Shown piece by piece: positions 1,282-43,200 of a stretch of 64,000 bases of DNA (the first letter of the stretch is position 1; every line of letters starts with the position of its first letter). Both the position numbers and the translations under genes were made by a program. Source of the stretch: an uncultured Chlorobiaceae bacterium (lineage in GTDB: Bacteria; Bacteroidota; Ignavibacteria; UBA10030; SZUA-254); the NCBI GenBank assembly GCA_964523395.1, contig CAZFXS010000009.1, positions 22,235-86,234 of the forward strand, in the 5' to 3' direction. The notes under the pieces were generated by a model. That model ran no database searches. It was not told the origin of the DNA and was given only the letters and a program-made list of their open reading frames with translations.

Positions 1282-2634
1282 TTGCAATCGAATTCTGTAC
1301 TATTTGTTTCACTTAACAGCGAACCGGTTACACAGGTCGTCGAGAAGCTTCACCGGGCTGACATCAGCGTTACTGCGGTAGAATCGTTAAACGATGCGGA
1401 AGAACGACTTCTCTCCCGAAGCTTTGAAGTTTGCCTCCTTCGATCCCAGGGTGTTTGCGATGCCCCGCTTAAGCTCCTCTCATTTTGCAAACAGCATACT
1501 ATTGGCACAAAACACATTATCAGTGTCTCCAACGGATCCGTTGAAGACGCTGTGCGAATCGTCAAGGCGGGAGCACATGATTTTCTTGTGGGTGATTGTT
1601 CCGATCCAAGAGTCACAGAATCCGTATTGCGCGCCGCGACAAACTACCGGGAAACCCCGAAAGCCCTTGTCGACCTTTCGGTTCCCAGCAGCGAGGCAAA
1701 CGCTGTTCTCGTAGGACAAAGTCCTGCCATTTGCGAAATCCGTTCGGCCGTGAATCTCGTGGCAAAATCTCAAACGACTATTCTGATCACGGGAGAAAGC
1801 GGAACCGGTAAAGAAGTTGTCGCCCGTCTTATACATCAGAAAAGCCAGCGCAGTGAGAGAGCATTTATCACAATTAATTGCGCCGCACTGCCGAAAGATG
1901 TCATTGAGAATGAATTATTCGGCCATGAGAAAGGCGCATTCACCGGCGCACTTACAAAGAAAGCCGGCTGTTTTGAACTTGCCGACAATGGAACGCTGCT
2001 CTTTGACGAAATTGCGGAGATGAGCATGGATACGCAGGCAAAACTGCTGAGGGCAATTGAAACGCAAAAATTCCGCAGGCTTGGCGGAAAAGAAGAAGTA
2101 AGTGTGGATGTCCGCATGATCGCCGCGACAAATAAAAGCATTTCTGCGGCGCTGAAGTCAAAGGAACTGCGTGAAGATTTATACTACCGTTTGAGTGTGG
2201 TGGAGATATTCATCCCGCCGTTACGGGAACGGAAGGAAGACATCGGTCTTCTGATTGAATACTTTTCAGCAATCTTTTCCGCGAAATACGGAAGAGTGCA
2301 GCCCCGTTTCTCCCCTGATACGATGGAAGTGCTCAATGCGTATGATTGGCCGGGCAATGTCCGCGAAGTACGCAACGTTGTCGAGCGCGCGCTTGTCATT
2401 TGCACTAACGACACGGTGACGCCACAGTATCTCCCCGCACGTATCAGAACGAAAGTGACTCCTGACGGACACATCAACATACCGATCGGTTGTTCAACGC
2501 AGGAAGCGGAGAGGATACTTATTCTCCAGACACTCGCCTCCGCCGGAAACAATAAAGCAAAAGCCGCAAAAATTCTCGGCGTGAGCCGGAAGACACTGCA
2601 TAATAAACTTGCCAGCTTTCAGCAACTAAGCTAA
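1282..2634 (+). CDS. Sigma-54-dependent transcriptional activator (NtrC/Fis family) with a degenerate pseudo-receiver N-domain
   Basis: Walker A GESGTGKE. Intact GAFTGA motif (ELFGHEKGAFTGA). Sigma54-AAA signature WPGNVREV. C-terminal Fis-type HTH (AKAAKILGVSRKTLHNKL). TTG start with AAAGGGG ribosome-binding site. The receiver-like N-terminus lacks the DD pair and phospho-Asp (VLFVSLNSEP, EVCLLRSQG). Confidence 0.9.
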   Translation: MQSNSVLFVSLNSEPVTQVVEKLHRADISVTAVESLNDAEERLLSRSFEVCLLRSQGVCDAPLKLLSFCKQHTIGTKHIISVSNGSVEDAVRIVKAGAHDFLVGDCSDPRVTESVLRAATNYRETPKALVDLSVPSSEANAVLVGQSPAICEIRSAVNLVAKSQTTILITGESGTGKEVVARLIHQKSQRSERAFITINCAALPKDVIENELFGHEKGAFTGALTKKAGCFELADNGTLLFDEIAEMSMDTQAKLLRAIETQKFRRLGGKEEVSVDVRMIAATNKSISAALKSKELREDLYYRLSVVEIFIPPLRERKEDIGLLIEYFSAIFSAKYGRVQPRFSPDTMEVLNAYDWPGNVREVRNVVERALVICTNDTVTPQYLPARIRTKVTPDGHINIPIGCSTQEAERILILQTLASAGNNKAKAAKILGVSRKTLHNKLASFQQLS

Positions 2635-2781: not shown

Positions 2782-5700
2782 TCACTTCAATAACAACATC
2801 CGGTTGGTTTTTACGACATGCTCGGTTGAACCGTTGAAGGCAGAGAGCCTGTAATAGTACACGCCGCTAGAAAGTTTTGACGCATCGAACGGAACCGAGT
2901 ATGACCCGATTTCCATTGCCTGATCTACGATTGTAGCAACACGTTCGCCGATCATGCTATACACTTCCAATGTAACATGGCTTGCCACAGGAACCGAGAA
3001 TGAAATAACTGTAGAGTTATTAAACGGGTTCGGATAGTTTTGTCCGAGGGTAAATGATGATGGAACCCCTGCCAATTCCCTGTTCGAGGCAACCAGCATC
3101 ATGGTTTGTGTCTCTGGACCTGTTCCACCATTTGCCTCCCCATATATAACCGTTTTTCCTGCACCTGTGAGCACCAGCGGTTCATTATTGCCGACACTCA
3201 GCGTGTACACTTCATTCGCATCTTTGACGTTCCATTCAATGGTCACGGGATATGAAACGGAGCTCATGGTAATCGGCATTTCAACGGACCGGGTTCCCGC
3301 AGGGTTAATAATGCGCGCGATACTTCCGTTTGACGTCGCCGAAGAAAATCTCACATCAAACACACCGTGTGGCGGAGGCGGAGGTAATTCAAAGTTGCGA
3401 TTCTCACCAAGAAGATCAGGATCGGCTCCAAAGTACAGTGATTGAGCTTCACCCTGATCCGTGGTTATGGTAATACTATTCAGCGTATTCAAATCAAAAG
3501 AATGTTGCTCTTTTGGAGGGGCAGTCACAAGACTGGAAATAACGATTTTCCCGGGCTGAGAAGCCTGGACCCAATATCCTTTACCGGGATTAATAACGCT
3601 TGTGATATAGTTTCCGCGTGAATACCCAAATACATTGCCCGTGATGATTCCCGCAGGTATAGAAAAAAGATTTGCCACAGGGATAGCCGAGGAAACAGAA
3701 CCAATAAAATTCCATCCCGGAGAAACATTAACTGTGTCCGCGGTAAATGCCGTACCGGCCATCCATACCTGATGTGCCATTGTCATTTTTACCCAATAGG
3801 CGGGTCCATTTTCAAGGACGTTCTCTACATTATATCCGTCATGAAATGAATACGCATCGGTAATTGCCAGGGGAAATATTGTTGTCTTCGTAAAGTCGGC
3901 AAGCCGTAAGGGCACGGAAACGATATTCCACTGCTTATCCACCGGAAATGAAAATGCCTGAGACGAATACATCCCGAACGTGGAATTTGATGAAGAAGAG
4001 TTATCGGTTACCGTCACAGAGTATGATCCCGAACTCGGCGGATATGTCTGCGTCCAGAGAGGCGGAGGTTCTACGTCTACTGTATAAGATCCGTTGGGAA
4101 GATCATAAAAATAATACCAACCGCTGGAATCTGTAAGCTCCGAATCCGTCACCGGTCCGATAACAGTCACATTCCATCCTGCCATGGCCGGTTCGTTTGT
4201 ATCTTTCACTCTGTTTTGGTTTGAATCAAAATAGAGTTGGCCTTTAATTTTAGGAAGGGCAGCAGTTATTGTGGAAAAATTTCTGATCGCAGACCAATTG
4301 CTCGTGCCGTTAGTACTTGAAGCATTCACCCTCCAGTGATACGCGGTACCAAAATTCAGATTACTTAATTGATACGATGTACCTGTGACGCCCGACTGAT
4401 CAACAAGCAGCGTTGAAAATGAAGAACTCAAAGATACTTGCACACGATATGATGTCGCACCGCTTGACGCATTCCAGCTTATCGTTACCGGAATTGGAAG
4501 TTCATTGGCTCCGTTGGCGGGAGAGTTAAGTGTCGGTACTCCGGGAGGAGGTGGCGGCGGAACAATTAATCCTGCCATAGCTTTCTTCAGCGCCTGGAGT
4601 AGCGGATCCCGTTGTCCAGCGGGGTTATTTTGCACCCAACCGGCATGTAATTCATAAATCATCACTCCGCCAATACCCAAGTTTTTCGCGTAATCAATTT
4701 TGTAGGCAATGCTCACAGAATCATCATAGGAGACCATATGCTTTACACCACTCCCGTCGGTAAACGAAAGATATGGTACTTTTGATGAATCATCCCAACG
4801 ATATGAGTTGGGATATTGCGACAAATAGCTCAAAGCATTTGCATAACTGCGATACCACTGCCCACCATTTCGCAATTGACACGGGCCATCAACACCTGAA
4901 AATTCCCAACCATAGAACGGAATTCCCATAGCGATTTTCGATTTAGGAAATCCGGCATTGATCCAATTTTGGGGACCGTGATCTGCCAATGTCCATGCAG
5001 TCCAATTACCACCATTGTAGGCGCACTCACCCCGTTTCAGCGGAGCATTAAATCCGGCGTATGTTGAAGTACCCTGATCATAATTCATTACAGTAATTTG
5101 ATCAAGTTTTTCAGCCATTGTCGGAATATGATAGGAATTGGAAATAAAGGAATACACAGCAGCTGTTATTATACCGGGAGTCGGCCAGGTGTTTAGCGTG
5201 TCGCGTAAGACAGTTAATAAATTAATAAAATCGGTTTGATTGTTCGGACCTTCCCAATCAACATCAACTCCATCATATCCCTTGCGTTTACAATAGGAAG
5301 AAATCGCGCCTACAAAGACCCGAATCTTATTGATATCATTACAAACCTGATCCATCTGAGCATCGGAATTCCCATAGATTCCGCCTATGCACAGAAGCGC
5401 CTTGACGCCATTTTTGTGAGAGTAATGGATCAACGAATCCTGAAAATTAATACTACGGTCATTATTCCCATTTCCGTACTGCAATTTCAGAGAGTCGCTG
5501 GCTTTGGTAATCGGGCTGAAGTACGGTGGTGTGGAAGCATCAGGATCGGCACTAAAATGAATAATGTGTGTGATGGCAGAGTAGTCTACCATCCAAGGCT
5601 TTAATGTCCAGATTGACCAATCAGGATAATAGGCCGTAACAAACATCGAAGCAGATGAAGCTGATTCTTCTTGAGCGGGAGGTTGAGATTGGTTTGATTC

Positions 5701-5802
5701 AAAAGCCGGATAATGTTTAAGCTGACTAAAAGCTGTTGCAGAAAACATTAGCAGAAAAAAAACAACAAAAAGTTGCGTCACGGAGGATTGCGATTTCCTC
5801 AA
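2782..5802 (-). CDS. T9SS-secreted multidomain protein: GH18 chitinase-like catalytic domain, poly-Pro linker, FN3, Cna-B/SdrD-like domain, two GWN...GYW modules, Por-type CTD
   Basis: Signal peptide. GH18 catalytic motif YDGVDVDWEGP (DxxDxDxE). PPPPPP linker. FN3 (SYRVQVS...YHWRV). C-terminal QNYPNPFNNSTVISFSV...VYYYRL sorting domain. Confidence 0.88.
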   Translation of the reverse strand: MRKSQSSVTQLFVVFFLLMFSATAFSQLKHYPAFESNQSQPPAQEESASSASMFVTAYYPDWSIWTLKPWMVDYSAITHIIHFSADPDASTPPYFSPITKASDSLKLQYGNGNNDRSINFQDSLIHYSHKNGVKALLCIGGIYGNSDAQMDQVCNDINKIRVFVGAISSYCKRKGYDGVDVDWEGPNNQTDFINLLTVLRDTLNTWPTPGIITAAVYSFISNSYHIPTMAEKLDQITVMNYDQGTSTYAGFNAPLKRGECAYNGGNWTAWTLADHGPQNWINAGFPKSKIAMGIPFYGWEFSGVDGPCQLRNGGQWYRSYANALSYLSQYPNSYRWDDSSKVPYLSFTDGSGVKHMVSYDDSVSIAYKIDYAKNLGIGGVMIYELHAGWVQNNPAGQRDPLLQALKKAMAGLIVPPPPPPGVPTLNSPANGANELPIPVTISWNASSGATSYRVQVSLSSSFSTLLVDQSGVTGTSYQLSNLNFGTAYHWRVNASSTNGTSNWSAIRNFSTITAALPKIKGQLYFDSNQNRVKDTNEPAMAGWNVTVIGPVTDSELTDSSGWYYFYDLPNGSYTVDVEPPPLWTQTYPPSSGSYSVTVTDNSSSSNSTFGMYSSQAFSFPVDKQWNIVSVPLRLADFTKTTIFPLAITDAYSFHDGYNVENVLENGPAYWVKMTMAHQVWMAGTAFTADTVNVSPGWNFIGSVSSAIPVANLFSIPAGIITGNVFGYSRGNYITSVINPGKGYWVQASQPGKIVISSLVTAPPKEQHSFDLNTLNSITITTDQGEAQSLYFGADPDLLGENRNFELPPPPPHGVFDVRFSSATSNGSIARIINPAGTRSVEMPITMSSVSYPVTIEWNVKDANEVYTLSVGNNEPLVLTGAGKTVIYGEANGGTGPETQTMMLVASNRELAGVPSSFTLGQNYPNPFNNSTVISFSVPVASHVTLEVYSMIGERVATIVDQAMEIGSYSVPFDASKLSSGVYYYRLSAFNGSTEHVVKTNRMLLLK

Positions 5803-6044
5803 TAGTGTCCCCTTTCAAAAGTACTATTTTGGTGTATCTGTTGGTTAACGAAGGCGCGGGAGAGTATTTTACTCGTTTTTATTTTCATAAAACTAACGAA
5901 TTGTTTAAGATTATGCAAGCGAAAACTTTCCTAGTTACTTATATTTTTACGATATCTTAACGGAATATTGCGATAAATCGGACTTTTGTATCCATATTTA
6001 CTACTATTCTTATTTCTCAAGCTGCCGAGGCTGTAAAGAGTAAT

Positions 6045-6123: not shown

Positions 6124-9100
6124 TTATTTCACCAGCATCATTTTGTTTACTCTTACAAAGGGTTCAAGAGCCAACGCTGATCCCTGGTCATCCACTCTTT
6201 GCGCCGTAAAGCGATAGTAATATATACCTGAGGGCAGCCCACCCGCATTAAAGAGCACCTCAATTTTCCCGGCACTCATTTGCTGGCCGTTGTAAACAAC
6301 AGATACTTCCTGGCCAAGTGCGTTATACACTTTCAGGTACACAACGGAAGGATTCGCAAGGTCAAACCCGATTGTGGTTGAAGGATTAAACGGGTTGGGA
6401 TAATTCTGATAGAGCGCAAACGTACCCGGAACTGTTGAAGGCGGTTCTTCAACACCTGTCGACTGATCTATATGCAGTGCAAGTGAATCCGGGGTAATTG
6501 AACCGCTATACTCGAAGAGGAAGTAGCCATTCTCTTCCTGCGACACTGTAGGATGCGCGGATACCACAAACTTCTGACTGTCTTCAGGGGCTACAACTGC
6601 CTGTTGCGGTGAAATACTGAAGACAGAATTTGTCGAAGTTATGTTGTTGATTTCCAGATTTAACTCGCCATCATTATATACGGTAATAGTATCGGTTTTC
6701 AGTTCTTCGGGCTGAACCACTCCAAAATTTACAGGTATGGTTCTGTGCCGTAAATTTGCCGCACGCACACCCTTACCGGTCACTAACGCTGTATCCGTCG
6801 AGTTACCTGAATTTATAACAATAGCAATCTTAGCATCGTATGTCGTGCGCTGATTCGGCGTAAACGTGACATAGATTTTCTTGCTTGCCCCCGGCGCGAT
6901 TGTTGTTCCGGTAAACGCGACTTCATACTGCGACAGTGATGACTGAATTTGAGACAGTGTAACGGTTGAAGAGCCGGGGTTTGAAATTGTGATCGAATCT
7001 TTCTTGGAATATCCCACTCCAACCTTACCGAAATTAATATTGTTTGGTGAAGCAACAACCGCGGCCGACACTGAAGTTGTGGTAAAACTTCTTACTTCCG
7101 AGAACTCGCTGGTCCCTGCAAGGTTCTTGGCGTTTACCCTCCAATAGTACAAGCTATTCAGATTCAAGTCAGCTAACTGAAATGAGTTGGTGGGTACAGT
7201 AGAATCATCCACAACAATATTTCCAAAAAGCGCATCCGTTGATACCTGTACTCTGTAGGTTACCGCGCCAATGGCAGCATCCCAGTTCAGGATTGCATTC
7301 ACAGGCACATTTGTTGCCTGGTTCGCCGGGGAATTAAGAACCGGTAAGCCGAGCGGGACCGCGGCGGCATTCGGACTCACACGGAAGTCGTCAAAAATTA
7401 CCGGGGTTGTTGAAACATATCCGCGAATCGCAAAATACCAGGATGGCGCTGTATGTACAGTATCCATCGCACTGAGAATTATGTCTCCATTGACAAGAAC
7501 ACACATTGTTTTATTGTCCGCAAGGATACGGAACGTCACAACGTCACCGACACGGATTTCATAATTTACCGACGCAAGCACTGTTCCATTCGCGTATCCG
7601 TTCGTTACTCTGTGAATTTCAACAAGGTCATTTCCGCTCTGTTCAGTAAACCGGAGACGATAACCCGATCCGGCTGCAAAATCTTTGCTGTTCATTTTCG
7701 CGTACAGCAGCAGAGAAGCATTTGAATAGTTACCGCTCTTTTGCTGAAGCGTAACGCTTGCCTCAGTTCCGCTGGTCATCATGCTGTCCCAGACCACACC
7801 CCCCATCGTATTTACTGTAAGACCATTGGTTGCCTGAAGCTTACTACTCACCACAGACATTATACCACCGGTATAGTTATCGAATGTTTTCCATCGGTTC
7901 GTTCCTGGCAAAGGACCGTCGGGACGGTTAAAATCATCCCTCAGGACAGCCGGATAAGGTATTGTATCCGCCGGAACAGGAGGTTGTCCGGAGCTAACAA
8001 CTGTAAAGCTCCACGCATTCGACCAATTACCAGAGCCAGCCGAGTTAGAGGCATTGACTCTCCAATAGTAGGTCGTACTGTTGAGTAAGTTGTTCACCGC
8101 ATACGATGTCCCAGTTATTCCACTCTGGTCAACAACCGTTGTCCCGAACGTTGAACTTGTTGATACCTGTACACGATAACCGGTCGCTGCGCTGACCGAA
8201 CCCCAGCTTACCGTCGTACCTGTCGGTACATCCATCGTTCCGTCCGCAGGGGTGTTCAATACCGGTACTGCCGGCGGCTGAACAGGCGGTGGCGGCGGCG
8301 GTGGTGTTACTGTCCCTCCTACCGCTTTCTTTAATGCCTGCAATAACGGGTCTCTCTTCCCTGCCGGATTTGACTGTACCCATCCTCCGACTAACTCATA
8401 AATCATCAATCCGCCAATTCCTAAACTCTTCGCATAATTAACCTTATACGCTATACTCACTGAGTCATCATACGATACCATATGCTTTACTCCGCTGCCG
8501 TCGGTAAACGACAGATACGGCACCTTCGATGAGTCATCCCAACGATAGGAGTTCGGATATTGCGCAAGGTAATTCAACGCATCAGAATAACTTCTATACC
8601 ACTGTCCGCCATTACGCAACTGACACGGACCATCGACTCCGCTAAATTCCCATCCATAGAACGGTACACCCATACCAATCTTTGACTTCGGGAAGCCTGC
8701 ATTGATCCAGTTCTGAGGGCCATGATCTGCCAGTGTCCAGGCTGACCAGTTTCCTCCTGACGCTTTACATTCACCCGGCTTCAACGGACTGTTAAATCCG
8801 GCATAGGTTGATGTTCCCTGGTCGTAGTTCATGACCGTAATCTGATCAAGTTTTGCCGCCATTACAGGAACATCGTACGAGTTGGAGATAAACGAGTAGA
8901 CTGCCGCCGTGATTATACCCGGTGTCGGCCAGCTATTCAACGTATCGCGTAAGACTGTCAGGAGGTTATTATAATCCGTCTTATTGTTCGGTCCTTCCCA
9001 GTCCACATCCACGCCGTCATATCCTTTGCGTTTGCAATACGACGAGATCGCACTTACGAACACCCGTATTTTATTGATATCGCTGCAGATCTGGTCCATG

Positions 9101-11205
9101 TTCGCATCTGAGTTGCCGTAGATACCTCCGATACATAACAACGCTTTAACGCCGTTCTTATGAGCATAATGGATCAGTGAATCCTGAAAATTGATACTAC
9201 GGTCGTTATTGCCGTTGCCATATTGCAGTTTTAATGAATCGCTTGCTTTGGTGATCGGACTGAAATACGGTGGTGTGGAAGCATCCGGGTCGGCACTGAA
9301 GTGGATGATATGTGTCATTGCCGAATAATCCACCAGCCATGGCTTCATTGTCCAGATTGACCAATCCGGATAATATGCCGTTACAAACATGTTGCCGCTG
9401 GTTGTATCAGGTGGCGGCGGGGGAGGCGCTGAAGCTACTGTAGTGAAACTGCGTACTGCCGACCAGCCGCTTGTGCCGATGCTGTTGCGCGCGTTAACGC
9501 GCCAGTAGTATACCGTGCTGTTAGTTAAACCGCCTAATGTAAATGATGTACCCGCTATTCCGCTTTGATCTACAAGGTTTGAGCTAAATGAAGAACCCGT
9601 TGAAACCTGCACCTGATAATCAGCCGCCCCGCTGACAGATCCCCAGCTTAACGATGTGCTCAATTGAACTCCGGTAGCACCATTTGACGGTGAAGCCAGC
9701 ACCGGTGCTGATGGCGGTTGCGGCACGGGGGGCGCAACAGTTACGAAGCTCCACGCATTGGACCAATTACCAGAGCCGGCCGAGTTGGAAGCATTGACTC
9801 TCCAATAGTAGGTCGTACTGTTGAGTAAGTTGTTCACCGCATACGATGTCCCAGTTATTCCACTCTGGTCAACAACCGTTGTCCCGAACGTTGAACTTGT
9901 TGATACCTGTACACGATAACCGGTCGCTGCGCTGACCGAACCCCAGCTTACCGTCGTACCTGTCGGTACATCCATCGTTCCGTCCGCAGGGGTGTTCAAT
10001 ACCGGTACTGCCGGCGGCTGAACAGGCGGTGGCGGCGGCGGTGGTGTTACTGTCCCTCCTACCGCTTTCTTTAATGCCTGCAATAACGGGTCTCTCTTCC
10101 CTGCCGGATTTGACTGTACCCATCCTCCGACTAACTCATAAATCATCAATCCGCCAATTCCTAAACTCTTCGCATAATTAACCTTATACGCTATACTCAC
10201 TGAGTCATCATACGATACCATATGCTTTACTCCGCTGCCGTCGGTAAACGACAGATACGGCACCTTCGATGAGTCATCCCAACGATAGGAGTTCGGATAT
10301 TGCGCAAGGTAATTCAACGCATCAGAATAACTTCTATACCACTGTCCGCCATTACGCAACTGACACGGACCATCGACTCCGCTAAATTCCCATCCATAGA
10401 ACGGTACACCCATACCAATCTTTGACTTCGGGAAGCCTGCATTGATCCAGTTCTGAGGGCCATGATCTGCCAGTGTCCAGGCTGACCAGTTTCCTCCTGA
10501 CGCTTTACATTCACCCGGCTTCAACGGACTGTTAAATCCGGCATAGGTTGATGTTCCCTGGTCGTAGTTCATGACCGTAATCTGATCAAGTTTTGCCGCC
10601 ATTACAGGAACATCGTACGAGTTGGAGATAAACGAGTAGACTGCCGCCGTGATTATACCCGGTGTCGGCCAGCTATTCAACGTATCGCGTAAGACTGTCA
10701 GGAGGTTATTATAATCCGTCTTATTGTTCGGTCCTTCCCAGTCCACATCCACGCCGTCATATCCTTTGCGTTTGCAATACGACGAGATCGCACTTACGAA
10801 CACCCGTATTTTATTGATATCGCTGCAGATCTGGTCCATGTTCGCATCTGAGTTGCCGTAGATACCTCCGATACATAACAACGCTTTAACGCCGTTCTTA
10901 TGAGCATAATGGATCAGTGAATCCTGAAAATTGATACTACGGTCGTTATTGCCGTTGCCATATTGCAGTTTTAATGAATCGCTTGCTTTGGTGATCGGAC
11001 TGAAATACGGTGGTGTGGAAGCATCCGGGTCGGCACTGAAGTGGATGATATGTGTCATTGCCGAATAATCCACCAGCCATGGCTTCATTGTCCAGATTGA
11101 CCAATCCGGATAATATGCCGTTACAAACATGTTGCCGCTGGTTTGTGCAAAACTAAAACTGCAAATAATTATTGAGAGGAACAGGGTTGCTAGCATTCTC
11201 TTCAT
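6124..11205 (-). CDS. T9SS-secreted 1693-aa protein with two identical GH18-polyPro-FN3 modules in tandem, an extra FN3, a LamG/lectin-like region, Ig-like/FN3 domains and a Por-type CTD
   Basis: Signal peptide MKRMLATLFLSIIICSFSFA. YDGVDVDWEGP motif appears twice. PPPPPPPVQPP linkers. FN3 motifs YYWRVNA. C-terminal LYQNYPNPFNPSTTIGFDL...IYYYRF sorting domain. Confidence 0.9.
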   Translation of the reverse strand: MKRMLATLFLSIIICSFSFAQTSGNMFVTAYYPDWSIWTMKPWLVDYSAMTHIIHFSADPDASTPPYFSPITKASDSLKLQYGNGNNDRSINFQDSLIHYAHKNGVKALLCIGGIYGNSDANMDQICSDINKIRVFVSAISSYCKRKGYDGVDVDWEGPNNKTDYNNLLTVLRDTLNSWPTPGIITAAVYSFISNSYDVPVMAAKLDQITVMNYDQGTSTYAGFNSPLKPGECKASGGNWSAWTLADHGPQNWINAGFPKSKIGMGVPFYGWEFSGVDGPCQLRNGGQWYRSYSDALNYLAQYPNSYRWDDSSKVPYLSFTDGSGVKHMVSYDDSVSIAYKVNYAKSLGIGGLMIYELVGGWVQSNPAGKRDPLLQALKKAVGGTVTPPPPPPPVQPPAVPVLNTPADGTMDVPTGTTVSWGSVSAATGYRVQVSTSSTFGTTVVDQSGITGTSYAVNNLLNSTTYYWRVNASNSAGSGNWSNAWSFVTVAPPVPQPPSAPVLASPSNGATGVQLSTSLSWGSVSGAADYQVQVSTGSSFSSNLVDQSGIAGTSFTLGGLTNSTVYYWRVNARNSIGTSGWSAVRSFTTVASAPPPPPPDTTSGNMFVTAYYPDWSIWTMKPWLVDYSAMTHIIHFSADPDASTPPYFSPITKASDSLKLQYGNGNNDRSINFQDSLIHYAHKNGVKALLCIGGIYGNSDANMDQICSDINKIRVFVSAISSYCKRKGYDGVDVDWEGPNNKTDYNNLLTVLRDTLNSWPTPGIITAAVYSFISNSYDVPVMAAKLDQITVMNYDQGTSTYAGFNSPLKPGECKASGGNWSAWTLADHGPQNWINAGFPKSKIGMGVPFYGWEFSGVDGPCQLRNGGQWYRSYSDALNYLAQYPNSYRWDDSSKVPYLSFTDGSGVKHMVSYDDSVSIAYKVNYAKSLGIGGLMIYELVGGWVQSNPAGKRDPLLQALKKAVGGTVTPPPPPPPVQPPAVPVLNTPADGTMDVPTGTTVSWGSVSAATGYRVQVSTSSTFGTTVVDQSGITGTSYAVNNLLNSTTYYWRVNASNSAGSGNWSNAWSFTVVSSGQPPVPADTIPYPAVLRDDFNRPDGPLPGTNRWKTFDNYTGGIMSVVSSKLQATNGLTVNTMGGVVWDSMMTSGTEASVTLQQKSGNYSNASLLLYAKMNSKDFAAGSGYRLRFTEQSGNDLVEIHRVTNGYANGTVLASVNYEIRVGDVVTFRILADNKTMCVLVNGDIILSAMDTVHTAPSWYFAIRGYVSTTPVIFDDFRVSPNAAAVPLGLPVLNSPANQATNVPVNAILNWDAAIGAVTYRVQVSTDALFGNIVVDDSTVPTNSFQLADLNLNSLYYWRVNAKNLAGTSEFSEVRSFTTTSVSAAVVASPNNINFGKVGVGYSKKDSITISNPGSSTVTLSQIQSSLSQYEVAFTGTTIAPGASKKIYVTFTPNQRTTYDAKIAIVINSGNSTDTALVTGKGVRAANLRHRTIPVNFGVVQPEELKTDTITVYNDGELNLEINNITSTNSVFSISPQQAVVAPEDSQKFVVSAHPTVSQEENGYFLFEYSGSITPDSLALHIDQSTGVEEPPSTVPGTFALYQNYPNPFNPSTTIGFDLANPSVVYLKVYNALGQEVSVVYNGQQMSAGKIEVLFNAGGLPSGIYYYRFTAQRVDDQGSALALEPFVRVNKMMLVK
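8008..11143. repeat. Tandem in-frame duplication inside CDS 6124..11205. Copy A is about 8008-9403 and copy B about 9748-11143, with a 344-bp unique spacer that encodes an FN3.
   Basis: Nucleotide identity starts imperfectly at 8008/9748, is exact from 8051/9791, and ends at 9403/11143 (1353 bp, offset 1740). Checked directly at both ends. Supported mid-repeat by identical antisense ORFs in the track (8129..8383 = 9869..10123; 8574..8774 = 10314..10514). Confidence 0.85.
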
Positions 11206-11560
11206 ATCTCGATCTCCTGAAGAAACTTATTGTTACGCAGAAGTCGGGCATTCTTACATTACTCATATTGCCCGTTTTACTTAATCTGCGTCACAATACT
11301 AACAAACCCTCAGACTTCAATCAGATGCGTGCCATGCGTCACAAAATAGACTTAAATCCCTTATTCAATTTCAAATTTACGTGACGCGGCACACGCCAAA
11401 GTGAGTTTCGTCAAAAATGAACAGGTCAGGAGGAATGCCGGATGCGGACGAAAAAATAGTTGACAGACCATAAGGCCATTGTCTCTTACCGATATTATTT
11501 AAAAGGAGAAGTGCCAATGTTGTCAGGGCAAAAGGTTGTGAGGAAGGGTGACAGCTATAG

Positions 11561-11603
11561 CGGAAAAATTAAAAGGCCTGATTGAGAAATCTCAATCAGG
11601 CCC
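11561..11603 (-). terminator. Rho-independent terminator closing the minus-strand export operon
   Basis: Perfect 12-bp stem GGCCTGATTGAG-aaatc-TCAATCAGGCC at 11576-11603. On the minus strand it is followed by UUUUAAUUUUUCC. It sits 26 nt downstream of the stop of the 11629..13557 gene. Confidence 0.7.
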
Positions 11604-11628
11604 TGAGGTTGTGCGATCAGCAAATAAT

Positions 11629-13557
11629 TTACTTACCTGCCAGAACAAATTGCTCCTGAAGATGTATTTTCGGAATTTGCGACGGTATTGAGGTAATTTC
11701 ATCCAATTGAATCTTATATGACCGGAGGATAATCCCATTCACACGCGAAATATTAACAAGCCTCCGAAGAATCTCCGGCTTAATCGAATCACTTGCAATC
11801 AACACCTCATCAATTTTCCTGGTATGGACAAGGCGTTGTAATCTCCAATGTCCCCCGAAAATCGGATACCCGTTGATTCGTTTCCCTTCCAACTGCGGAT
11901 CATCATCAAGGAATCCAACCGGATTATAATCAAGTGTATCATCATGCATCATCCGCTGAATAATAAGAAGTCCTTTGGCATCCGCACCATACACCAGGAC
12001 ATTTTTGTTCCCATGTTTATGTTCACGACGGGAAATATAGTGAAGCACGAGGAACGACACTCGCGCGCCTACGACAAATGAGAGTAGAAAGTAGAAATTC
12101 AACGTTACCAAAGTAAAATTGATTTCACCGAACTGCTTTGGCAAAAACGCAAGAACTGTGTATGTAACAGCTGTTGCGGCAATAACTGTTTTGAGGATTT
12201 TCAACAAATCGCCAATTCCCATCTGACGGAACGAACCTTTGTACAATCCCGCGACAGAAAATATCAAAAGCTGCATTCCAGTTACCAGAGCCAGCACCAC
12301 AAACGTATGCTGATGCAAGCCTTGATCCGAAAATGACGGAAACACTAACCACTGGGCAAGCAGGAACGCGCCGACAATAAAACCCAGGTCCAGGAATCCC
12401 TGAAAGATTGTGCTATTCATCAGCGGCCATTCATACATCGGAAGCAGAACACCGTTGCGGAGAACCGCCATCTCTTTATACCGCAACTGGCTGATGCCAA
12501 TAAACGTGGCGATCGCAACAGTTACCAAAATCAGTGAAGCACCGAAATTATTCGTGATTGTCACGGCAAACGCACCGATACCAAATGCGCACGACACCAC
12601 ATATAATACAAGCACAACACTGCGATGGGAAAGTCCCCGATCAATCAGCCGGTGATGAATATGACCCCGGTCGGGAAGAAACATGGTGACAAGTTTTCCC
12701 AGGAACGACGCCGAATTTTTCTGCTGAGGGAGAATGGAACGGAGCAGTCTTCTGGTCATCGATAATAACGTATCCATAATCGGTAACCCGAGGGCAAGCA
12801 TCGGAACAACAATTGCAAAGGCTGTTGATCCCTTTGTCGAACTCTGAATGGAAAGAATCGCCAAAGAAAATCCTATAAACAAACTTCCTGAATCACCAAG
12901 GAAAATCCTTGCACCGCTGAAATTATAACGGAGAAATCCAAGAATAGCACCACCAAGCAATAATGCCATCATCGCTGTTGTCAGATCTCCTTTCAACAAC
13001 GAAATAGCAAACATTGTAATCGATACAATAAACGAAACGCCGGAAGCCAACCCATCGAGCCCGTCGATAAGGTTAATCGCGTTAGTAATACCGACAACCC
13101 AAATCAGCGTCGCAGGATAATCCAGCCACCCCATGGTCAAAAGATCCGGACTGAACGGATGAGTTATGGCTGAGATTCTGAATCCCGCAAAATACACCAT
13201 GGTCCCTGCGATAACCTGACCAAGAAGTTTCTTACTTGGCGTAAGAGGATGAAGGTCGTCCCATATTCCAAGGAGTAATACCAGCGTCAGCGAAATCACA
13301 AGCATCACGCCTGTATGGGGGCTTAAGCCCGAGAATGTGTGCAGGGATGGATCGAGATATACCGAAACCACCAGAGATAAGAAAAAGCTTGCATATATTG
13401 CCACCCCTCCAAGCCGGGGAATGGGGAGTTTGTGAACCTTGCGTTCATTCGGCTGATCGATAGCGCCAATCCGTTTCGCATAAGAAATCACGAGCGGCGT
13501 CAGCACCAACGACAGGAGAACAGGAACCAAAAAAAGAAAGTAATGCTGGATCAACAT
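11629..13557 (-). CDS. Polyprenyl-phosphate HexNAc-1-phosphate transferase (WecA/MraY family) fused to a C-terminal WbaP-N-terminal-like Rossmann (CoA_binding_3-like) domain
   Basis: N-terminal half has multiple TM helices with WecA/MraY motifs (IDQPNERKVHK, NAINLIDGLDGLASG). C-terminal part has VLVYGADAKG and YNPVGFLDDDP motifs, as in the N-domain of sugar-phosphate transferases, but no WbaP catalytic domain. Confidence 0.8.
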   Translation of the reverse strand: MLIQHYFLFLVPVLLSLVLTPLVISYAKRIGAIDQPNERKVHKLPIPRLGGVAIYASFFLSLVVSVYLDPSLHTFSGLSPHTGVMLVISLTLVLLLGIWDDLHPLTPSKKLLGQVIAGTMVYFAGFRISAITHPFSPDLLTMGWLDYPATLIWVVGITNAINLIDGLDGLASGVSFIVSITMFAISLLKGDLTTAMMALLLGGAILGFLRYNFSGARIFLGDSGSLFIGFSLAILSIQSSTKGSTAFAIVVPMLALGLPIMDTLLSMTRRLLRSILPQQKNSASFLGKLVTMFLPDRGHIHHRLIDRGLSHRSVVLVLYVVSCAFGIGAFAVTITNNFGASLILVTVAIATFIGISQLRYKEMAVLRNGVLLPMYEWPLMNSTIFQGFLDLGFIVGAFLLAQWLVFPSFSDQGLHQHTFVVLALVTGMQLLIFSVAGLYKGSFRQMGIGDLLKILKTVIAATAVTYTVLAFLPKQFGEINFTLVTLNFYFLLSFVVGARVSFLVLHYISRREHKHGNKNVLVYGADAKGLLIIQRMMHDDTLDYNPVGFLDDDPQLEGKRINGYPIFGGHWRLQRLVHTRKIDEVLIASDSIKPEILRRLVNISRVNGIILRSYKIQLDEITSIPSQIPKIHLQEQFVLAGK

Positions 13558-13603: not shown

Positions 13604-14440
13604 TTATGATTCAAATGATTCTGAAATTGCCTGGCGAACATTCCCGTCAGAAGTTCCGCACTTCACGTACCGGGGAAGATTATTTTCATGGATAAATCCT
13701 TCAGTACACTGCGCCGCCGCCGCATCAATCACTGTCCGGAGCTCCCGGATATTGCCGGGCCACTGATACGAACGCAGTAACGCTAAGGTTTCGGGAGCAA
13801 CAGATTCGATTTTGGTGCCGTATCGCTCGTTCGACTCTTCCAAAAACTCTTTGATAAGCATCGGTATATCATCCCTTCGTTCCCTAAGCGGAGGAATATT
13901 GATGCACACCTGCCCCAGCCTGCGTGATGATTCTTCCCGCGTTCTATTGTGCAAGAGTTTTTCATCATACGGAATCGTAACACCTTCTATCGCGCGAACG
14001 TTGATATACACTTCTTCATGTCCCCCGACACGTCTAAAATGCTGCTGCTCAAATGCCGATAATATCAAAGTCTGAACTTGTTTCGGAAGCGACGATAATC
14101 TGTCAAAATAAATCGTTCCTCCGTTTGCCTTCTCGATAACTCCTGCATGAACAATTCTTTCAGGTACATTAGCGTTTTCCCATCCGAAAATTGTTTTCAA
14201 CGTCAGGTGAGATGGCAATTCAGCACAATCCACATGGACAAACTTTCTCTCTGCCCGCGCACTTAACTGATGAATAAGGCTGGCGAGCCATTCCTTACCT
14301 GAACCGCTTTCACCAACAATGCGGACACTTAAATCGCTCACTGCCACTTTCTCGATCGTTTTAAGAATGTTTTGCATGTGAACGCCGTACGCGGAAACCG
14401 AGTCCTTTTCAAGGGACCTTGTAATTGAAGAGTATTTCAT
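13604..14440 (-). CDS. Stand-alone sigma-54-activator-type AAA+ domain protein with no receiver, no HTH, and the GAFTGA loop replaced
   Basis: Begins directly with the EBP AAA+ core (GESGSGKE Walker A, WPGNIRELR). GAFTGA position reads TIFGWENANVPER. Ends without a Fis HTH. Confidence 0.8.
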   Translation of the reverse strand: MKYSSITRSLEKDSVSAYGVHMQNILKTIEKVAVSDLSVRIVGESGSGKEWLASLIHQLSARAERKFVHVDCAELPSHLTLKTIFGWENANVPERIVHAGVIEKANGGTIYFDRLSSLPKQVQTLILSAFEQQHFRRVGGHEEVYINVRAIEGVTIPYDEKLLHNRTREESSRRLGQVCINIPPLRERRDDIPMLIKEFLEESNERYGTKIESVAPETLALLRSYQWPGNIRELRTVIDAAAAQCTEGFIHENNLPRYVKCGTSDGNVRQAISESFES

Positions 14441-14524: not shown

Positions 14525-15472
14525 TTATCTGTCTGTCCTGATACTTTCTGTTGTATCCCAAAGATCAAAACCAAGCGTAAACTGATATAAACGGTCAGTT
14601 AACCTGCTTGGGAGCATACCATATTCCAGATGCCATCTCCCTGCCCGCATACCAATACCATAGGTAGCAGCCTGAAGATCTTCATCAACAATATATCCAA
14701 CCCGGAGAGCCACAAGACGAAGGGCAACATACTCCACACCCCCTTTATACCGCAACCCTTCCTGTTCAAAAACTTTTTCGTTTGCAAAAGATAATGTCAA
14801 ATATGTTTTATTCGCTGAAGCCGGAAAACGTAATGACGCTCCTACCGTAAGTGTCCGCGGCAATTGCTGAGTGGCAAGAAAGGTTGACGTTCCATCAAAA
14901 TTATACCTGATGCCGTTTCCAAAACCGGTAAAAACCGCTCCGTAACTCACCTCGGGTGATGGCGCATAAAAAACTGATACTGATCCTGAAATTGCCCAAA
15001 GGTTCTCTGCGGATGTTGTACCGTACCGTATTCCAAGTCCGGCCCCAACGCAAAATGTCGGGACAATTTCACGAGAATACGCCACATCATAGCCATATTG
15101 CACCGCTTTAAAATCAGCCAGGGGACTGGACTGGAGTGAACCGATATGATTTACCGACAAGCCCACTGCAACAACCTCACCTTTTTTCACAAACAAAGGA
15201 GTTGAGATATTTTCATTCATGATATTGCTTGTCCTGTCAAGGCCATGATTCAAGACAATAGATGTATTCTGCATATAAACCAATGATGCGGGATTCCAAT
15301 ACATGCTATTCACATTATATATGTCCGCCACAAATGCCTCGGCAAAACCCAACGCCCTCGCACCCGCATTAAATGTCCGCGGTCGAAACAATGTAGAGGT
15401 TTGGCCTAGCGATGCTACGGTAACAGTCAGACTGAGCGCCAGAATACTATAAATACTTATTAATCGTTTCAT
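14525..15472 (-). CDS. Outer-membrane beta-barrel protein, possibly a Wzp-like porin partner of the short OPX protein
   Basis: Signal peptide. Alternating hydrophobic beta-strand pattern throughout. Aromatic-rich C-terminal region. Immediately downstream of the wza-like gene. Confidence 0.55.
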   Translation of the reverse strand: MKRLISIYSILALSLTVTVASLGQTSTLFRPRTFNAGARALGFAEAFVADIYNVNSMYWNPASLVYMQNTSIVLNHGLDRTSNIMNENISTPLFVKKGEVVAVGLSVNHIGSLQSSPLADFKAVQYGYDVAYSREIVPTFCVGAGLGIRYGTTSAENLWAISGSVSVFYAPSPEVSYGAVFTGFGNGIRYNFDGTSTFLATQQLPRTLTVGASLRFPASANKTYLTLSFANEKVFEQEGLRYKGGVEYVALRLVALRVGYIVDEDLQAATYGIGMRAGRWHLEYGMLPSRLTDRLYQFTLGFDLWDTTESIRTDR

Positions 15473-15486
15473 TTTCCGTGCGCCGA

Positions 15487-16203
15487 TTAGTTATTAAAAA
15501 CCTGGAAGAAACCGAAAATAAAAATTGCATCCCGCATAAAGTCCGACAACTCACGGATAATGTTCGCTCGTTTCGGAACAAAAACGGTATCTCCCGGGCG
15601 AATAACAGGAATGGATTCGATATTACCATGCTCCATATACCACGTTAAATCGACTTCGATGGGTTGCCGGTTTTGACCACCTCCTCGCAGAATTTTTATG
15701 TTGCGAAGGTCCGAATCCGGCGTTGTACCACCTGCTGTTGAGAGTACCTCGATGAGTGTAGCATCAGTAGTCAGTGTGTAATTTTCCTGCCTGGTAACCT
15801 CACCAAGCACTGTCACTTTTTGCGGAGCAGAACTGACTACCGTTATTGTAAGTTTTATTTCTCCCTGAATGTATTCAGAAAGCTTTTTGATCATTTGCTG
15901 CGTAAACTGCTCCTTCGTCAAACCGGCCGCCGTTACTTCACCCAACAGAGGTAGCGCAATCTGACCCAGTTCTTTGACTGTCGTCCGGGAATCAAATTCA
16001 GGATAGCCCCACACAGAGAGCTGGATCTGATCACCCTGCCGGATTACGTAATTATCAGATTGTGCCTCAGCCTGTATTGGCCGGCTTCCGGAACGGATAA
16101 TCTGAGTTAAACTATCCTTGGTCATATCTCCGCTACTGCAACCTCCGGCGACAATCGCCAAAAAGAGAGCAAACAGACAAACTTTGTTGATTGATACTTT
16201 CAT
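15487..16203 (-). CDS. wza: Short Wza-like polysaccharide export (OPX) lipoprotein lacking the C-terminal outer-membrane helix
   Basis: Poly_export motif (IRQGDQIQLSVWGYPEF) plus an SLBB-like domain. Start moved to ATG at 16203 (MKVSINKVCLFALFLAIVAGGCSS, lipobox AGGC). The track start at 16305 would sit almost on top of the sigma-54 promoter. Confidence 0.8.
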   Translation of the reverse strand: MKVSINKVCLFALFLAIVAGGCSSGDMTKDSLTQIIRSGSRPIQAEAQSDNYVIRQGDQIQLSVWGYPEFDSRTTVKELGQIALPLLGEVTAAGLTKEQFTQQMIKKLSEYIQGEIKLTITVVSSAPQKVTVLGEVTRQENYTLTTDATLIEVLSTAGGTTPDSDLRNIKILRGGGQNRQPIEVDLTWYMEHGNIESIPVIRPGDTVFVPKRANIIRELSDFMRDAIFIFGFFQVFNN

Positions 16204-16308
16204 ATTATAGAGGATGTTGTTATTAAGGCTAATCTTTGAGTTAATACTACCTGCCGAAGGAAGGAGCCAATAGCCCATTCCACAAACAGTTGAAGGCAGT
16301 GACATTAC

Positions 16309-16324
16309 GGCAAACGCTGTGCCA
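16309..16324 (-). promoter_or_regulatory. Sigma-54 (-24/-12) promoter driving wza-OMP-AAA-GT operon
   Basis: Minus strand reads TGGCAC-AGCGT-TTGCC (GG-N10-GC spacing exact). Predicted transcription start about 16296, giving a 90-nt leader to the 16203 start. Confidence 0.6.
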
Positions 16325-16689
16325 GAAGAAAGATCTACGCACCAAAAATTCCCTAAACGTTTACATTCAGACTACCTGCTCATCCACCACTCGAAACATG
16401 CCATTTCATGCAAATCATAAAAAGTATTTTGAAACAGTAAGGAATGTTTTCCCCGTTTTAATAAATCGATAGCTCAATTTTCCCAAACAAAATCCTGAGC
16501 TTTTTCCTCTACAACGGAAAGGCTTTAATGATGTGTATACTTATTACACAAGCTCAAATTTTACTGCAAATTGCGGTATAAAAATTACACACTTGCCTCA
16601 CCACTCCATTAACTGGATTCCGGCATACTTCCATAAAGGGTTAATACAGGCTCATTTATAGGTTTTATATTACCGTGCCTGTAAAATAA

Positions 16690-16705
16690 TGGCACATCAA
16701 TTGCA
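16690..16705 (+). promoter_or_regulatory. Sigma-54 (-24/-12) promoter driving the plus-strand polysaccharide operon
   Basis: TGGCAC-ATCAA-TTGCA is a perfect consensus. Predicted transcription start about 16717, 40 nt before the GTG start at 16756, which has an AAGAAGGAA ribosome-binding site. Confidence 0.65.
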
Positions 16706-40197: not shown

Positions 40198-40257
40198 CTT
40201 TTTTGGAGATTGCATCCCCTACATCTCCTTTTATGTGTATGGAATAACAAAATATCT

Positions 40258-43200
40258 ATGATGAGGTTGTTTATGAAAACGATACTTACGGTTTTGATGC
40301 TTCTGATGATATCGCAGCTTGCACTGGCACAGAACCCCACCTATGAGCTGGTTCTCAAAAATGACTCTTTGGTCAGTTCGACTATATATGAGTTCGACAT
40401 CGTGCTTCAGCGGACGGGGGGAACGGCATTTGAGCTTGCGAGCCTTCAGCCCATCATGACATTTAATACGGGTATTTCGAGCGGCTCGCTCACATTATCG
40501 ATGAATGCAGGAACATCAGAGCTCAACAGCTCGCAACAGCCGACGACGATGACTATCAATGGAAACGAGCTGAGAATTAATCCCAGAGTTCCGCCAGGAG
40601 CCGGATCGGGAACAATCATATCGACATCACCCGGATTGCGGGTTGGCCGTTTCCGGCTTACCAGCACTACGGCCTTCGAAAATCAAACGGCTGATATTGC
40701 CTGGAAAAATGATCTGAATCCATTTACGAGGGTGTTCGCGTATGTCAGTGGTGTCAACACCGAAATAACAGATTCCCTGACTCATTTGAACCAACTGGCG
40801 AATGCTAATCTGTCAGTTCCTTTTATTACAACCTCATCGCCATTGCCGGGCGCAACATCCGGGACACCATACTCGCAGACTTTAACCATCTCGGGTGGTT
40901 CCACACCATATTCATTTTCTCTAGTATCGGGAACCATAGCACCCGGACTCTCTCTGTCATTTTCAGGAAACATTACCGGTACCCCCACAACCGCAGGTAC
41001 ATTTAACTTTACGGTAGCTGTAATAGACGGAGCAGATCAAACCTCAAACAAAGAATTTTCAATAACCACCGTACCCGGATCAGCTTCTAAGCTTGTATAT
41101 ATTCAACAACCTACGACCACCGCAGTAACTGCCACAATTACTCCGGCTGTAACAGTCCAATTACAGGATGCGGCCAGTAACAATGTAACAACGGCAGGTG
41201 TATCCACAACTATTGCTCTTTCCTCCGGAACCGGCACTTTGAGCGGTACGCTTACTCAGTTAACAAATGCATCCGGTATTGCTACATTCAATAACCTCAG
41301 CATTAACCAGACCGGATCGAAAAATTTGACAACTTCAAGTACAGGATTGACGTCAGCGCTCAGTAACTTATTTACGATTACCCCCGGTCCGGTTTCCCAA
41401 GTAGCATTTATTCAGGAACCTACGAATACCACTGCCGGAAGCACTATTTCCCCAAGCATTTCTGTACAGTTACGTGATGCGCTGGGCAATAATGTCACTA
41501 CTGCCGGAGTTTCCATCACTCTTTCACTGACAACAGGTACAGGAACATTGAGCGGGACAACTACAAGAACGACCAATGGGTCGGGTCTCGCGGTTTTTGA
41601 TGACATCAGCATAAATCTGGCTGGTTCAAAAAATCTTACCGCATCGAGTACTTCCCTGACCTCAGATATAAGCAATGCATTTACCATCGCGGTCGGTCCT
41701 GCAAGCGTGCTTGCGATAATCCAACAACCGACCAATACCACTGCCGGCGTCAACATCTCTCCCTCGATTACCGTCCATGTCCAGGATGGATTTGGGAATG
41801 ATGTGAGCGGTGCGGGTGTCTCTATCGATATGACACTATCATCCGGAACCGGAACATTGGGTGGCAACACCTCACGCAGTACCACAGGGGGAGGTATTGC
41901 CACATTTAATAATTTAAATATCACTGCGGCCGGCGTTAAAGTGCTCACAGCTTCGAGTACCGGCTTGACCTCTGCGGTAAGCAACAGCTTTACAATACTC
42001 CCTGCATCCGCTTCACAGGTAGTGTTCGTCCAACAACCCACGAATACAGCGGCGGGAGCAACCATTACACCGGCAGTTACCGCACAGATACGCGATACTT
42101 TCGGTAATGATGTCGCCACGGCAGGAACATCTGTTACCATGTCGCTCTCCAGTGGAACAGGCACACTCAGCGGGACTACATCGCAACTGACTAACAGTTC
42201 AGGACTTGCAACATTCAGCGATCTGAGCATCAATCTTTCCGGAGCAAAGAATCTCACGGCAGCAAGCACAGGCCTGACATCAGCGATTAGCAGTGCATTT
42301 ACAATTTCCGCCGGAAGTGCCACGCAGGTTGTTTTCATTCAGCAACCGACAAATACAACGGCAGGAGCGACAATCAGTCCCAGTGTTACTGTACAACTCC
42401 GCGACGGTTTAGGAAATAACGTATCCAGCGCAGGAGTGTCTATTACTCTCTCATTAAGCTCCGGTACCGGAACGCTTAACGGCACCACCACACAATTGAC
42501 TAACGCTTCAGGTCTTGCAACATTTAATAATCTTAGTATTACCGCGGCCGGATCAAAAGCACTTACAGCCTCGAGCAGCGGACTCACCTCCGCAATCAGC
42601 AATTCATTCACAATCTCACCGGCCACTGCCACTACCCTTGTATTTTTGCAGCAGCCGACATCGACAACCGCAGCAACCGTAGTAACTCCGGCCATCACCA
42701 CAGAACTACGTGATAATTTTGGGAATACCGTTCCCAATGCCGGCGTCTCGATCACAATGGCATTAAGTTCCGGCACCGGAACTCTCTCCGGTACAACAGT
42801 TAGAACGACCGATGCATCCGGCGTTGCAACATTTAACGATTTAAGCATTAACCTCGTCGGATCAAAAGCACTCACCGCAAGCGGCAGTGGGTTAACTCCG
42901 GCAGTAAGCAATGCGTTTACCATTTCTGCCGGCGGTGCAACACAAGTCGCATTTGTACAGCAGCCGACGACAACAACAGCAGGCGCAACAATCAGTCCAA
43001 GTATCACCGTGCAGTTGCGCGACGGAGCAGGGAATGATGTCGCAAGCGCGGGGGTTTCCGTCACTCTTGCCCTTACGACCGGAACGGGTGTATTAAGCGG
43101 AACATTAACACAGCTTACAAATGCCTCGGGATTGGCGACTTTTAATGACTTAAGCATCAATCTTTCCGGTTCAAAAAACATTACCGCGTCGAGCGGAGGC

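Follow-up and report, generated by a model that had tools for sequence, protein, structure and literature searches.

Sigma-54 activators are textbook homomeric AAA+ rings, and the inhibitors known to act on them, PspA, HrpV, NifL and FleN, are unrelated proteins. FleT of Rhodobacter (Cereibacter) sphaeroides consists of an activator AAA+ module alone, lacking both the N-terminal and the helix-turn-helix (HTH) domains; it is inactive by itself, is encoded in an operon whose sigma-54 promoter is activated by FleQ, and acts as a hetero-oligomer with FleQ (PMC10084136, PMC11999139, PMC7277832). Together with FlgR and CtcC, which likewise have no DNA-binding domain, FleT is treated as a competent activator (PMC7175178). 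TyrR, DhaR, HupR, VpsR and YplP carry activator-type AAA+ domains in which the sigma-54 contact motif has been destroyed (PMC3162934), and VpsR regulates polysaccharide genes (PMC3162934, PMC6158489). Here we analyze a 64,000-nucleotide stretch of the genome of an uncultured Chlorobiaceae bacterium (contig CAZFXS010000009.1; the window throughout this text) and focus on the minus-strand gene at 13604..14440, which encodes a stand-alone, degenerate sigma-54-activator AAA+ domain of 278 aa, referred to below as pseudo-EBP (EBP, enhancer-binding protein) and characterized by Pfam searches, alignment to NtrC1, AlphaFold (AF2) modeling and the ratio of non-synonymous to synonymous substitution rates (dN/dS, omega).

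The first-pass annotation of this DNA had delimited the same open reading frame (ORF) and described it as an isolated AAA+ core, and both statements hold. Pfam assigns Sigma54_activat (PF00158) to residues 21-179 (E 3.4e-34) and AAA_lid_14 (PF25601) to residues 186-266 (E 8.9e-25), while a scan of all 278 residues left both Response_reg and HTH_8 unmatched and the NCBIfam activator models match through the central domain only, all of them far under cutoff. The product is a clade-6 AAA+ domain homologous to PF00158 with its lid, its closest solved relatives being NtrC1, ZraR, NifA, NtrX, FleQ and PspF, and the NtrC1 alignment spans aa 19-253 (E 3e-42). Structure prediction from a 6-sequence family alignment was unusable (predicted local distance difference test score, pLDDT, of 46), and we therefore used a 91-sequence alignment, which yielded a confident model (pLDDT 89; predicted template-modeling score, pTM, 0.85). 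The top PDB matches of that model are NtrC1, NtrX, LuxO, FleQ and PspF, with VpsR also among the structural matches, and its template-modeling score is about 0.75-0.8 against NtrC1, PspF and FleQ. Intergenic gaps of only 84 nt to the upstream and 46 nt to the downstream gene leave no space for hidden or lost domains. Furthermore, the 45 nt available upstream of Met22 differ at two positions from a metagenome relative, and both differences are synonymous, which supports the upstream start. The protein thus comprises the AAA+ core alone, with neither a membrane-anchoring nor a partner-binding extension. Searching the contig collection for an exact copy of it returned no match.

Motifs were called from residue-by-residue alignments of pseudo-EBP to NtrC1 and to a full-length activator encoded at 1282..2634 in the window. 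An intact Walker A, GESGSGKE (aa 43-50; 14291..14314, minus strand), and the sensor II region WPGNIRELR (aa 227-235; 13736..13762, minus strand) are present as had been annotated, and the C-terminus lies 43 aa beyond the latter, close to the 40 or so originally estimated. The proposed replacement of the sigma-54-contacting GAFTGA motif is likewise borne out: in the L1 loop region FGWENANVPERI (aa 85-96; 14153..14188, minus strand) the canonical E-K-GAFTGA reads E-N-ANVPER, so that ANVPER stands in place of GAFTGA in both alignments at an unshifted loop position, and the alternative of an intact but displaced loop falls away. To these known losses the NtrC1 alignment adds two. The Walker B is degenerate (TIYFDR, aa 109-114; 14099..14116, minus strand), FLDE having become YFDR with replacement by Arg of the catalytic Glu that corresponds to PspF E108 and NtrC1 E239, a residue whose role in activators has been described (PMC7175178); and sensor I is lost, ATN reading GVT. 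The same comparison shows the arginine finger R174 (NtrC1 R299, PspF R168) to be retained, as are R168 and the sensor II arginine R232.

Without GAFTGA and the Walker B glutamate, pseudo-EBP should be unable to remodel the sigma-54 holoenzyme, and without an HTH it should be unable to find an enhancer. With GAFTGA, the DNA-binding domain, the Walker B glutamate and sensor I all missing from its sequence, the protein cannot serve as a sigma-54 activator on its own, as the first-pass annotation had argued from fewer losses.

The same truncation recurs in a family of homologues, which we designate below by locus (L) or protein (P) number where they have to be told apart. A word-indexed search recovered 5 homologues of 246-288 aa (identities of 95, 55, 53, 48 and 49%), below which the bit score falls sharply, from 242 to 184, to ordinary 450-aa activators. 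A scan of species-representative genomes found short versions of 274-288 aa in 6 metagenome-assembled genomes (MAGs; L006-L010 and L012) assigned to Ignavibacteriae, Ignavibacteria, Ignavibacteriales, Chitinophagaceae and, in two cases, Bacteroidota, the remaining 74 matches being full-length activators or partial and atypical proteins (329-867 aa). About 20 more short clusters came from a full HMMER scan of 1.84 billion representatives, with scores of 225-290 bits that lie above the plateau of ordinary activators; long multi-domain matches in the representative search proved to be tandem activator domains with summed scores, and were rejected as family members. In all, the search for the same truncation gives about 30 short homologues in the same genomic slot, with identities down to about 35%, all from Ignavibacteria and Bacteroidota polysaccharide loci, and a neighbor-joining tree divides 46 canonical activators from 31 short or degenerate proteins by a single split. 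Members carry database names such as 'sigma 54-interacting transcriptional regulator' and 'NtrC family response regulator', and their sequences argue against both.

Degeneration across this family is extensive. GAFTGA is found in none of the 31 members, whose L1 region is variable, and a Walker B D-E pair survives in one; elsewhere the pair reads DR, DK, TA, DM, DA, NE, KD, NK, DN, NN, MN, QE, EN, ND, DH, DQ, DG or RQ. About one third of the wider family has a degenerate Walker A, the P-loop glycine preceding the lysine being Glu in 8 members and the lysine itself being lost in 4, and while the arginine finger is still Arg in 21 of the 31, the sensor II arginine varies (R, Q, H, Y or other). 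Positions conserved in canonical activators yet lost here include H87, G90, F92, T93, A95 and E114, as well as A153/T154/N155, R168-E-D-L and R240; in the alignments, the residues lost across the family are exactly the sigma-54-contact and catalytic ones. Structural residues (GE-G-K, RxGG, PPLRER and WPGN) are retained, and W51, D71, L118, P177, N181 and C222 are family-specific positions. With an intact Walker B in only one of the 31 and frequent degeneration of Walker A, the family is, to judge from its motifs, a pseudo-ATPase version of the sigma-54 activator module. Two members, P0144 (350 aa; L091 8001-9053) and P0154 (319 aa), have retained a C-terminal Fis-type HTH and are equally degenerate, lacking GAFTGA and carrying DG or DR as their Walker B pair, which suggests that the family descended from a DNA-binding form without an N-terminal domain and ties its origin to enhancer-bound regulators. 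Separately, we observed that P0121, P0124 and P0127 are long chains combining two or three activator AAA+ domains, one of them degenerate (without GAFTGA, and with LDN, LDD or IDS as Walker B) and another canonical; dead and live activator modules are thus naturally fused in these proteins.

The loss of every activator-specific motif, together with the status of pseudo-EBP as the least conserved protein of its operon, could be taken to mean that it is the decaying remnant of a full-length activator, a pseudogene. The gene is nonetheless under purifying selection. Relative to a 93.5%-identical metagenome contig, 41 of its differences are synonymous and 13 non-synonymous (omega 0.082; the adjacent transferase gene gives 0.055 in the same comparison); moreover, the reading frame is intact, the flanks have no room for lost domains, the fold is confidently predicted, and about 30 same-length homologues keep to an invariant synteny down to 35% identity. 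Selection, synteny and the intact frame effectively refute decay, which we regard as barely credible, and with it the frameshifted remnant that the first-pass annotation had named as the finding that would overturn its interpretation.

The presence of FleQ and VpsR among the structural matches of the model brings to mind a different function, in which the domain would serve as a receptor for cyclic di-GMP (c-di-GMP) or a similar small molecule and control polysaccharide production as the AAA+ domains of those two proteins do. In Vibrio and Pseudomonas, exopolysaccharide genes are indeed controlled through c-di-GMP by activator-like AAA+ proteins whose sigma-54 motifs are defective (PMC6158489). 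The binding residues argue otherwise. At the positions that we take to form the c-di-GMP site of FleQ (R144, R185, N186, E330 and R334, placed on the verified FleQ sequence), pseudo-EBP has D, S, L, E and E, and we rejected a FleQ-type site on this basis; R144, N186 and R334 are each matched in 0 of the 31 family members, and the receiver domain required for a VpsR-type site is missing. A receptor role consequently appears very unlikely.

Pseudo-EBP is the third of four minus-strand genes in a polysaccharide export and initiation operon. The first encodes a Wza-like polysaccharide export lipoprotein (15487..16203; Pfam Poly_export and SLBB, NCBIfam pepcterm_export). Its listed ORF extends to 16305 (15487..16305, minus strand), which would place the ATG upstream of the predicted sigma-54 transcript start; orthologue alignments begin at Met35 (16203), which is probably the true start and would open a lipoprotein-type signal peptide, MKVSINKVCLFALFLAIVAGGC. 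A PorV/PorQ-like outer-membrane barrel (14525..15472, minus strand; NCBIfam PorV_fam, 3e-24, below cutoff) immediately precedes pseudo-EBP, a position kept at all loci, and a WecA-like GT4 initiating transferase fused to CoA_binding_3 (11629..13557, minus strand) follows it, the operon being closed by an intrinsic terminator with a 14-bp stem and a T run (11573..11604, minus strand). Apart from this terminal element, a scan for sigma-70-type promoters and terminators within the operon gave matches no more frequent than in shuffled sequence.

The operon position is conserved. The order exporter, barrel of about 300 aa, pseudo-EBP and (GT4) recurs in the sufficiently long loci, at identities of about 35-95%, and also at the locus of the HTH-bearing P0144, which occupies the same slot as pseudo-EBP. 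One exception is L089, where the barrel still stands before the gene, no exporter was called, and a protein with a type IX secretion system (T9SS) tail lies between the gene and GT4. Gaps beside the homologues can be as short as 7-8 nt in L088 and 15 nt in L090. In the Ignavibacteria MAG contig CAVRTZ010000013.1 (L007), the Wzy, PorV-like and GT4 matches each come in two overlapping pieces (3933-5349, 9015-9948 and 11005-12853), and such split, overlapping matches suggest assembly frameshift errors rather than real pseudogenes.

That the tightest and only invariant genomic partners of the gene are envelope and biosynthesis genes, separated from it by very short gaps, invites the view that the domain has left transcription control altogether and become a cytoplasmic nucleotide-sensing or structural part of polysaccharide assembly, for example by binding the WecA-like transferase or a Wzc-like kinase. 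The family-wide relaxation of constraint on all sigma-54-specific and catalytic residues, and the fact that a competent activator is not consistently present within 10 kb, point in the same direction. On the other hand, a DNA-binding HTH is kept in two members, in P0144 within the very same slot, which speaks for a DNA-linked ancestral role; the protein has no extension for membrane anchoring or partner binding; and we know of no export machine that contains an AAA+ domain of the sigma-54-activator type. We consider such a role somewhat doubtful on balance. A broader version, in which the whole pseudo-ATPase family would have been recruited as a fixed component of Wzx/Wzy-type exopolysaccharide systems and would act outside transcription, scaffolding or gating the WecA-like transferase or Wzc-like kinase in the cytoplasm, seems to us unlikely; if true, it would represent a function never described for this AAA+ clade.

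The regulatory signals upstream of the operon bear directly on the reading that we prefer. A sigma-54-type promoter, TGGCACAGCGTTTGC (TGGCAC-N5-TTGC; 16309..16324, minus strand), lies about 105 nt upstream of the likely exporter start and is assigned to the exporter/barrel/pseudo-EBP/GT4 operon, and a perfect sigma-54 promoter, TGGCACATCAATTGCA (TGGCAC-N5-TTGCA; 16690..16705, plus strand), faces the divergent Wzz/tyrosine kinase/Wzy operon. The pattern TGGYAY-N5-TTGC occurs 3 times in the window against 0.55 expected, and two of the three matches are this divergent pair. The gene is accordingly predicted to be transcribed from the exporter-side promoter, given the conserved upstream element and the lack of any internal promoter or terminator motif. 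No sigma-54 element was found before pseudo-EBP itself, GT4, the GH18 genes or the activator gene, even at 3 mismatches. The first-pass annotation had placed pseudo-EBP in a sigma-54-controlled operon under the promoter at 16690; the sigma-54 control stands, through the operon's own conserved element at 16324..16309 on the minus strand, whereas the promoter it cited belongs to the divergent operon. The feedback loop it drew fares similarly, since a conserved sigma-54-type promoter before the operon makes the topology plausible even though 16690 is not that promoter.

Both promoters are conserved beyond the window. The divergent pair is present in the same orientations in L001, L006, L007, L008 and L009, the exporter-side element is also found in L002, and the Wzz-side promoter is conserved 49-64 nt upstream of Wzz in L001, L006-L010 and L091, with a weaker variant, judged by eye, in L090. 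In L088 both candidate promoters (5993-6008, minus strand, and 6305-6320, plus strand) read TGGCAY-N5-TTGA rather than TTGC, a form that may be a lineage-specific -12 variant. Midway between the two promoters of the window lies a perfect dyad, TGTGTA-N7-TACACA (16532..16550), a candidate enhancer or upstream activating sequence (UAS), and next to it a half-degenerate second dyad, TGTGTAATTTTTATACCGC on the minus strand (16573..16591), a candidate second enhancer site. The two dyads are conserved in an alignment of five orthologous intergenic regions, and dyads of a similar type occur in L088 and L090. From their sequence and placement, they look like a shared enhancer for both promoters, in a layout that is classic for a dimeric HTH activator.

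A candidate occupant of these sites is encoded in the window. The plus-strand gene at 1282..2634 specifies a full-length sigma-54 activator with a pseudo-receiver, an AAA+ domain and a Fis-type HTH; its AAA+ domain is intact (GAFTGA, D-E and ATN) and HTH_8 is present. The N-terminal domain matches Response_reg below threshold (18.8 bits against a cutoff of 30.2), and the receiver alignment shows Arg at the position of the phospho-acceptor Asp and Leu-Asn at that of the acidic pair, so that this activator is probably controlled by something other than phosphorylation. An orthologue with 61% identity lies 8 kb from the pseudo-EBP gene in L007, and metagenome orthologues (L092-L104; 54-66% identity) consistently have a GH18-like gene with a T9SS tail in convergent orientation. 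A partnership between pseudo-EBP and the 1282..2634 protein would be plausible.

We tentatively favor, as possible rather than established, a role for pseudo-EBP in negative feedback, in which the protein would enter or cap the ring of a competent activator as a non-catalytic subunit. The anatomy of the protein, the purifying selection on its gene, the fixed place in the operon and the conservation of the promoters and dyads are observed here; that mixed oligomers form, which activator is the partner and in which direction the effect goes are what we infer from them. Having kept its fold, its P-loop and a trans-acting arginine while its regulatory and DNA-binding domains have gone, the protein would be made from the sigma-54 promoter as the third gene of the polysaccharide operon and would associate, through conserved AAA+ ring interfaces, with a DNA-bound competent activator, possibly the 1282..2634 protein, sitting on the TGTGTA-N7-TACACA dyads between the divergent promoters. 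In the resulting mixed rings, the dead subunits would neither hydrolyze ATP nor contact sigma-54, so that output would fall, and the net effect would be negative feedback on both exopolysaccharide operons. We prefer this mode of action because FleT is closest to pseudo-EBP in architecture and circuit, and because pseudo-EBP can neither remodel the holoenzyme nor find an enhancer alone.

Several observations weigh against it. We ruled out that pseudo-EBP arose by recent duplication of the local activator, since it scores 172 bits to the 1282..2634 protein and 189 to an unrelated activator. The orthologues of the 1282..2634 protein are, moreover, linked primarily to T9SS GH18 genes. Within the 8-10 kb flanks of the 1282..2634 orthologues in L094, L097 and L101, no pseudo-EBP or GT4 gene was found, the locus being absent or the flanks too short. 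The exporter-side sigma-54 motif is weak or absent in the most distant loci, L088 and L090 having weaker variants. In addition, no other protein of the operon evolves as fast as pseudo-EBP (47-55% identity, compared with 67-87% in the case of the exporter and the transferase), and the decay of Walker A and the arginine finger in the wider family would fit a nucleotide-independent scaffold equally well.

The sign of the proposed effect could also be the reverse. A positive co-factor of the FleT type would join a full-length activator, alter promoter choice or stabilize the ring, and raise operon expression in a feed-forward manner. FleT, the only characterized AAA+-only relative, does act positively, and one enhancer region common to two divergent promoters makes a specificity switch conceivable; yet a subunit without GAFTGA and the catalytic glutamate would add no remodeling capacity, and in PspF mixing and single-chain experiments such subunits reportedly lowered ring output. 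We therefore judge positive action improbable.

The divergent cluster, long and of the Wzx/Wzy type, opens with a chain-length determinant (Wzz), a tyrosine-kinase-like ATPase and Wzy, and continues with WecG, a flippase, GT4s, an acyl-CoA ligase, FemAB-like proteins and a deacetylase. Two genes for very large secreted proteins (2782..5802 and 6124..11205, both minus strand), GH18 chitinase-like with fn3/Ig repeats and T9SS C-terminal sorting domains, are placed between the activator gene and the polysaccharide operon, and similar genes flank the locus in L006-L010. Farther away lie giant ORFs of 3569 aa (40210..50919, plus strand) and 2951 aa (51876..60731, minus strand), and a hybrid two-component protein (60954..63998, minus strand) with Reg_prop/Y_Y_Y, HisKA, HATPase, receiver and AraC HTH domains, a set typical for polysaccharide-utilization regulators of Bacteroidota.

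If the favored role as a ring subunit is correct, activator rings would here be tuned in a different manner, by a selected and catalytically dead copy of the activator module whose own operon may be its target. Such control of an AAA+ ring by a dead paralogous subunit would be a natural counterpart to the mixing of subunits in the laboratory. It would also help to understand how a widespread Ignavibacteria/Bacteroidota exopolysaccharide locus is regulated, which is relevant to the formation of biofilms and flocs in soils, sediments and wastewater. Our literature search found no AAA+-only family without GAFTGA and a functional Walker B that is fixed in one polysaccharide-operon slot, and nothing specific on sigma-54 polysaccharide loci in Bacteroidetes or Ignavibacteria.

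Among described systems, the locus as a whole is most readily set beside the XrtA/PEP-CTERM loci with their PrsK/PrsR sigma-54 regulator. The two have in common a polysaccharide locus under (here predicted) sigma-54 control, an export protein, a chain-length determinant, a tyrosine kinase, a stp1-type glycosyltransferase, an acyl-CoA ligase, FemAB-like genes and a deacetylase, every match in the window falling below the equivalog cutoffs. They differ in that no exosortase was seen in the window, which instead holds T9SS-type cargo and a PorV-like barrel, and we know of no stand-alone degenerate activator domain in the described XrtA system. Compared with TyrR, DhaR, HupR, VpsR and YplP, which keep sensory N-terminal and DNA-binding domains and act as sigma-70-type regulators, pseudo-EBP has neither domain; with respect to the HTH, its family resembles the TyrR/DhaR/HupR/VpsR type only in P0144 and P0154.

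Pseudo-EBP shares with FleT an AAA+-only architecture, a position behind a (predicted) sigma-54 promoter and the lack of self-activation. FleT, however, is described as a sigma-54 activator, and FleQ/FleT activates class III promoters, a comparison made from published descriptions, whereas pseudo-EBP, without GAFTGA, the Walker B glutamate and sensor I, should make no remodeling contribution. The contexts differ as well, FleT belonging to the flagellar system of an alphaproteobacterium and pseudo-EBP to exopolysaccharide loci of Ignavibacteria and Bacteroidota. Finally, PspF and HrpR/S are activators without N-terminal domains that are controlled in trans by a protein partner, and pspA is encoded in a sigma-54 operon activated by its target PspF, which results in negative feedback with the topology proposed here. 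PspA and HrpV, in contrast, are not AAA+ proteins, whereas the inhibitor proposed here would be a degenerate copy of the activator module itself.

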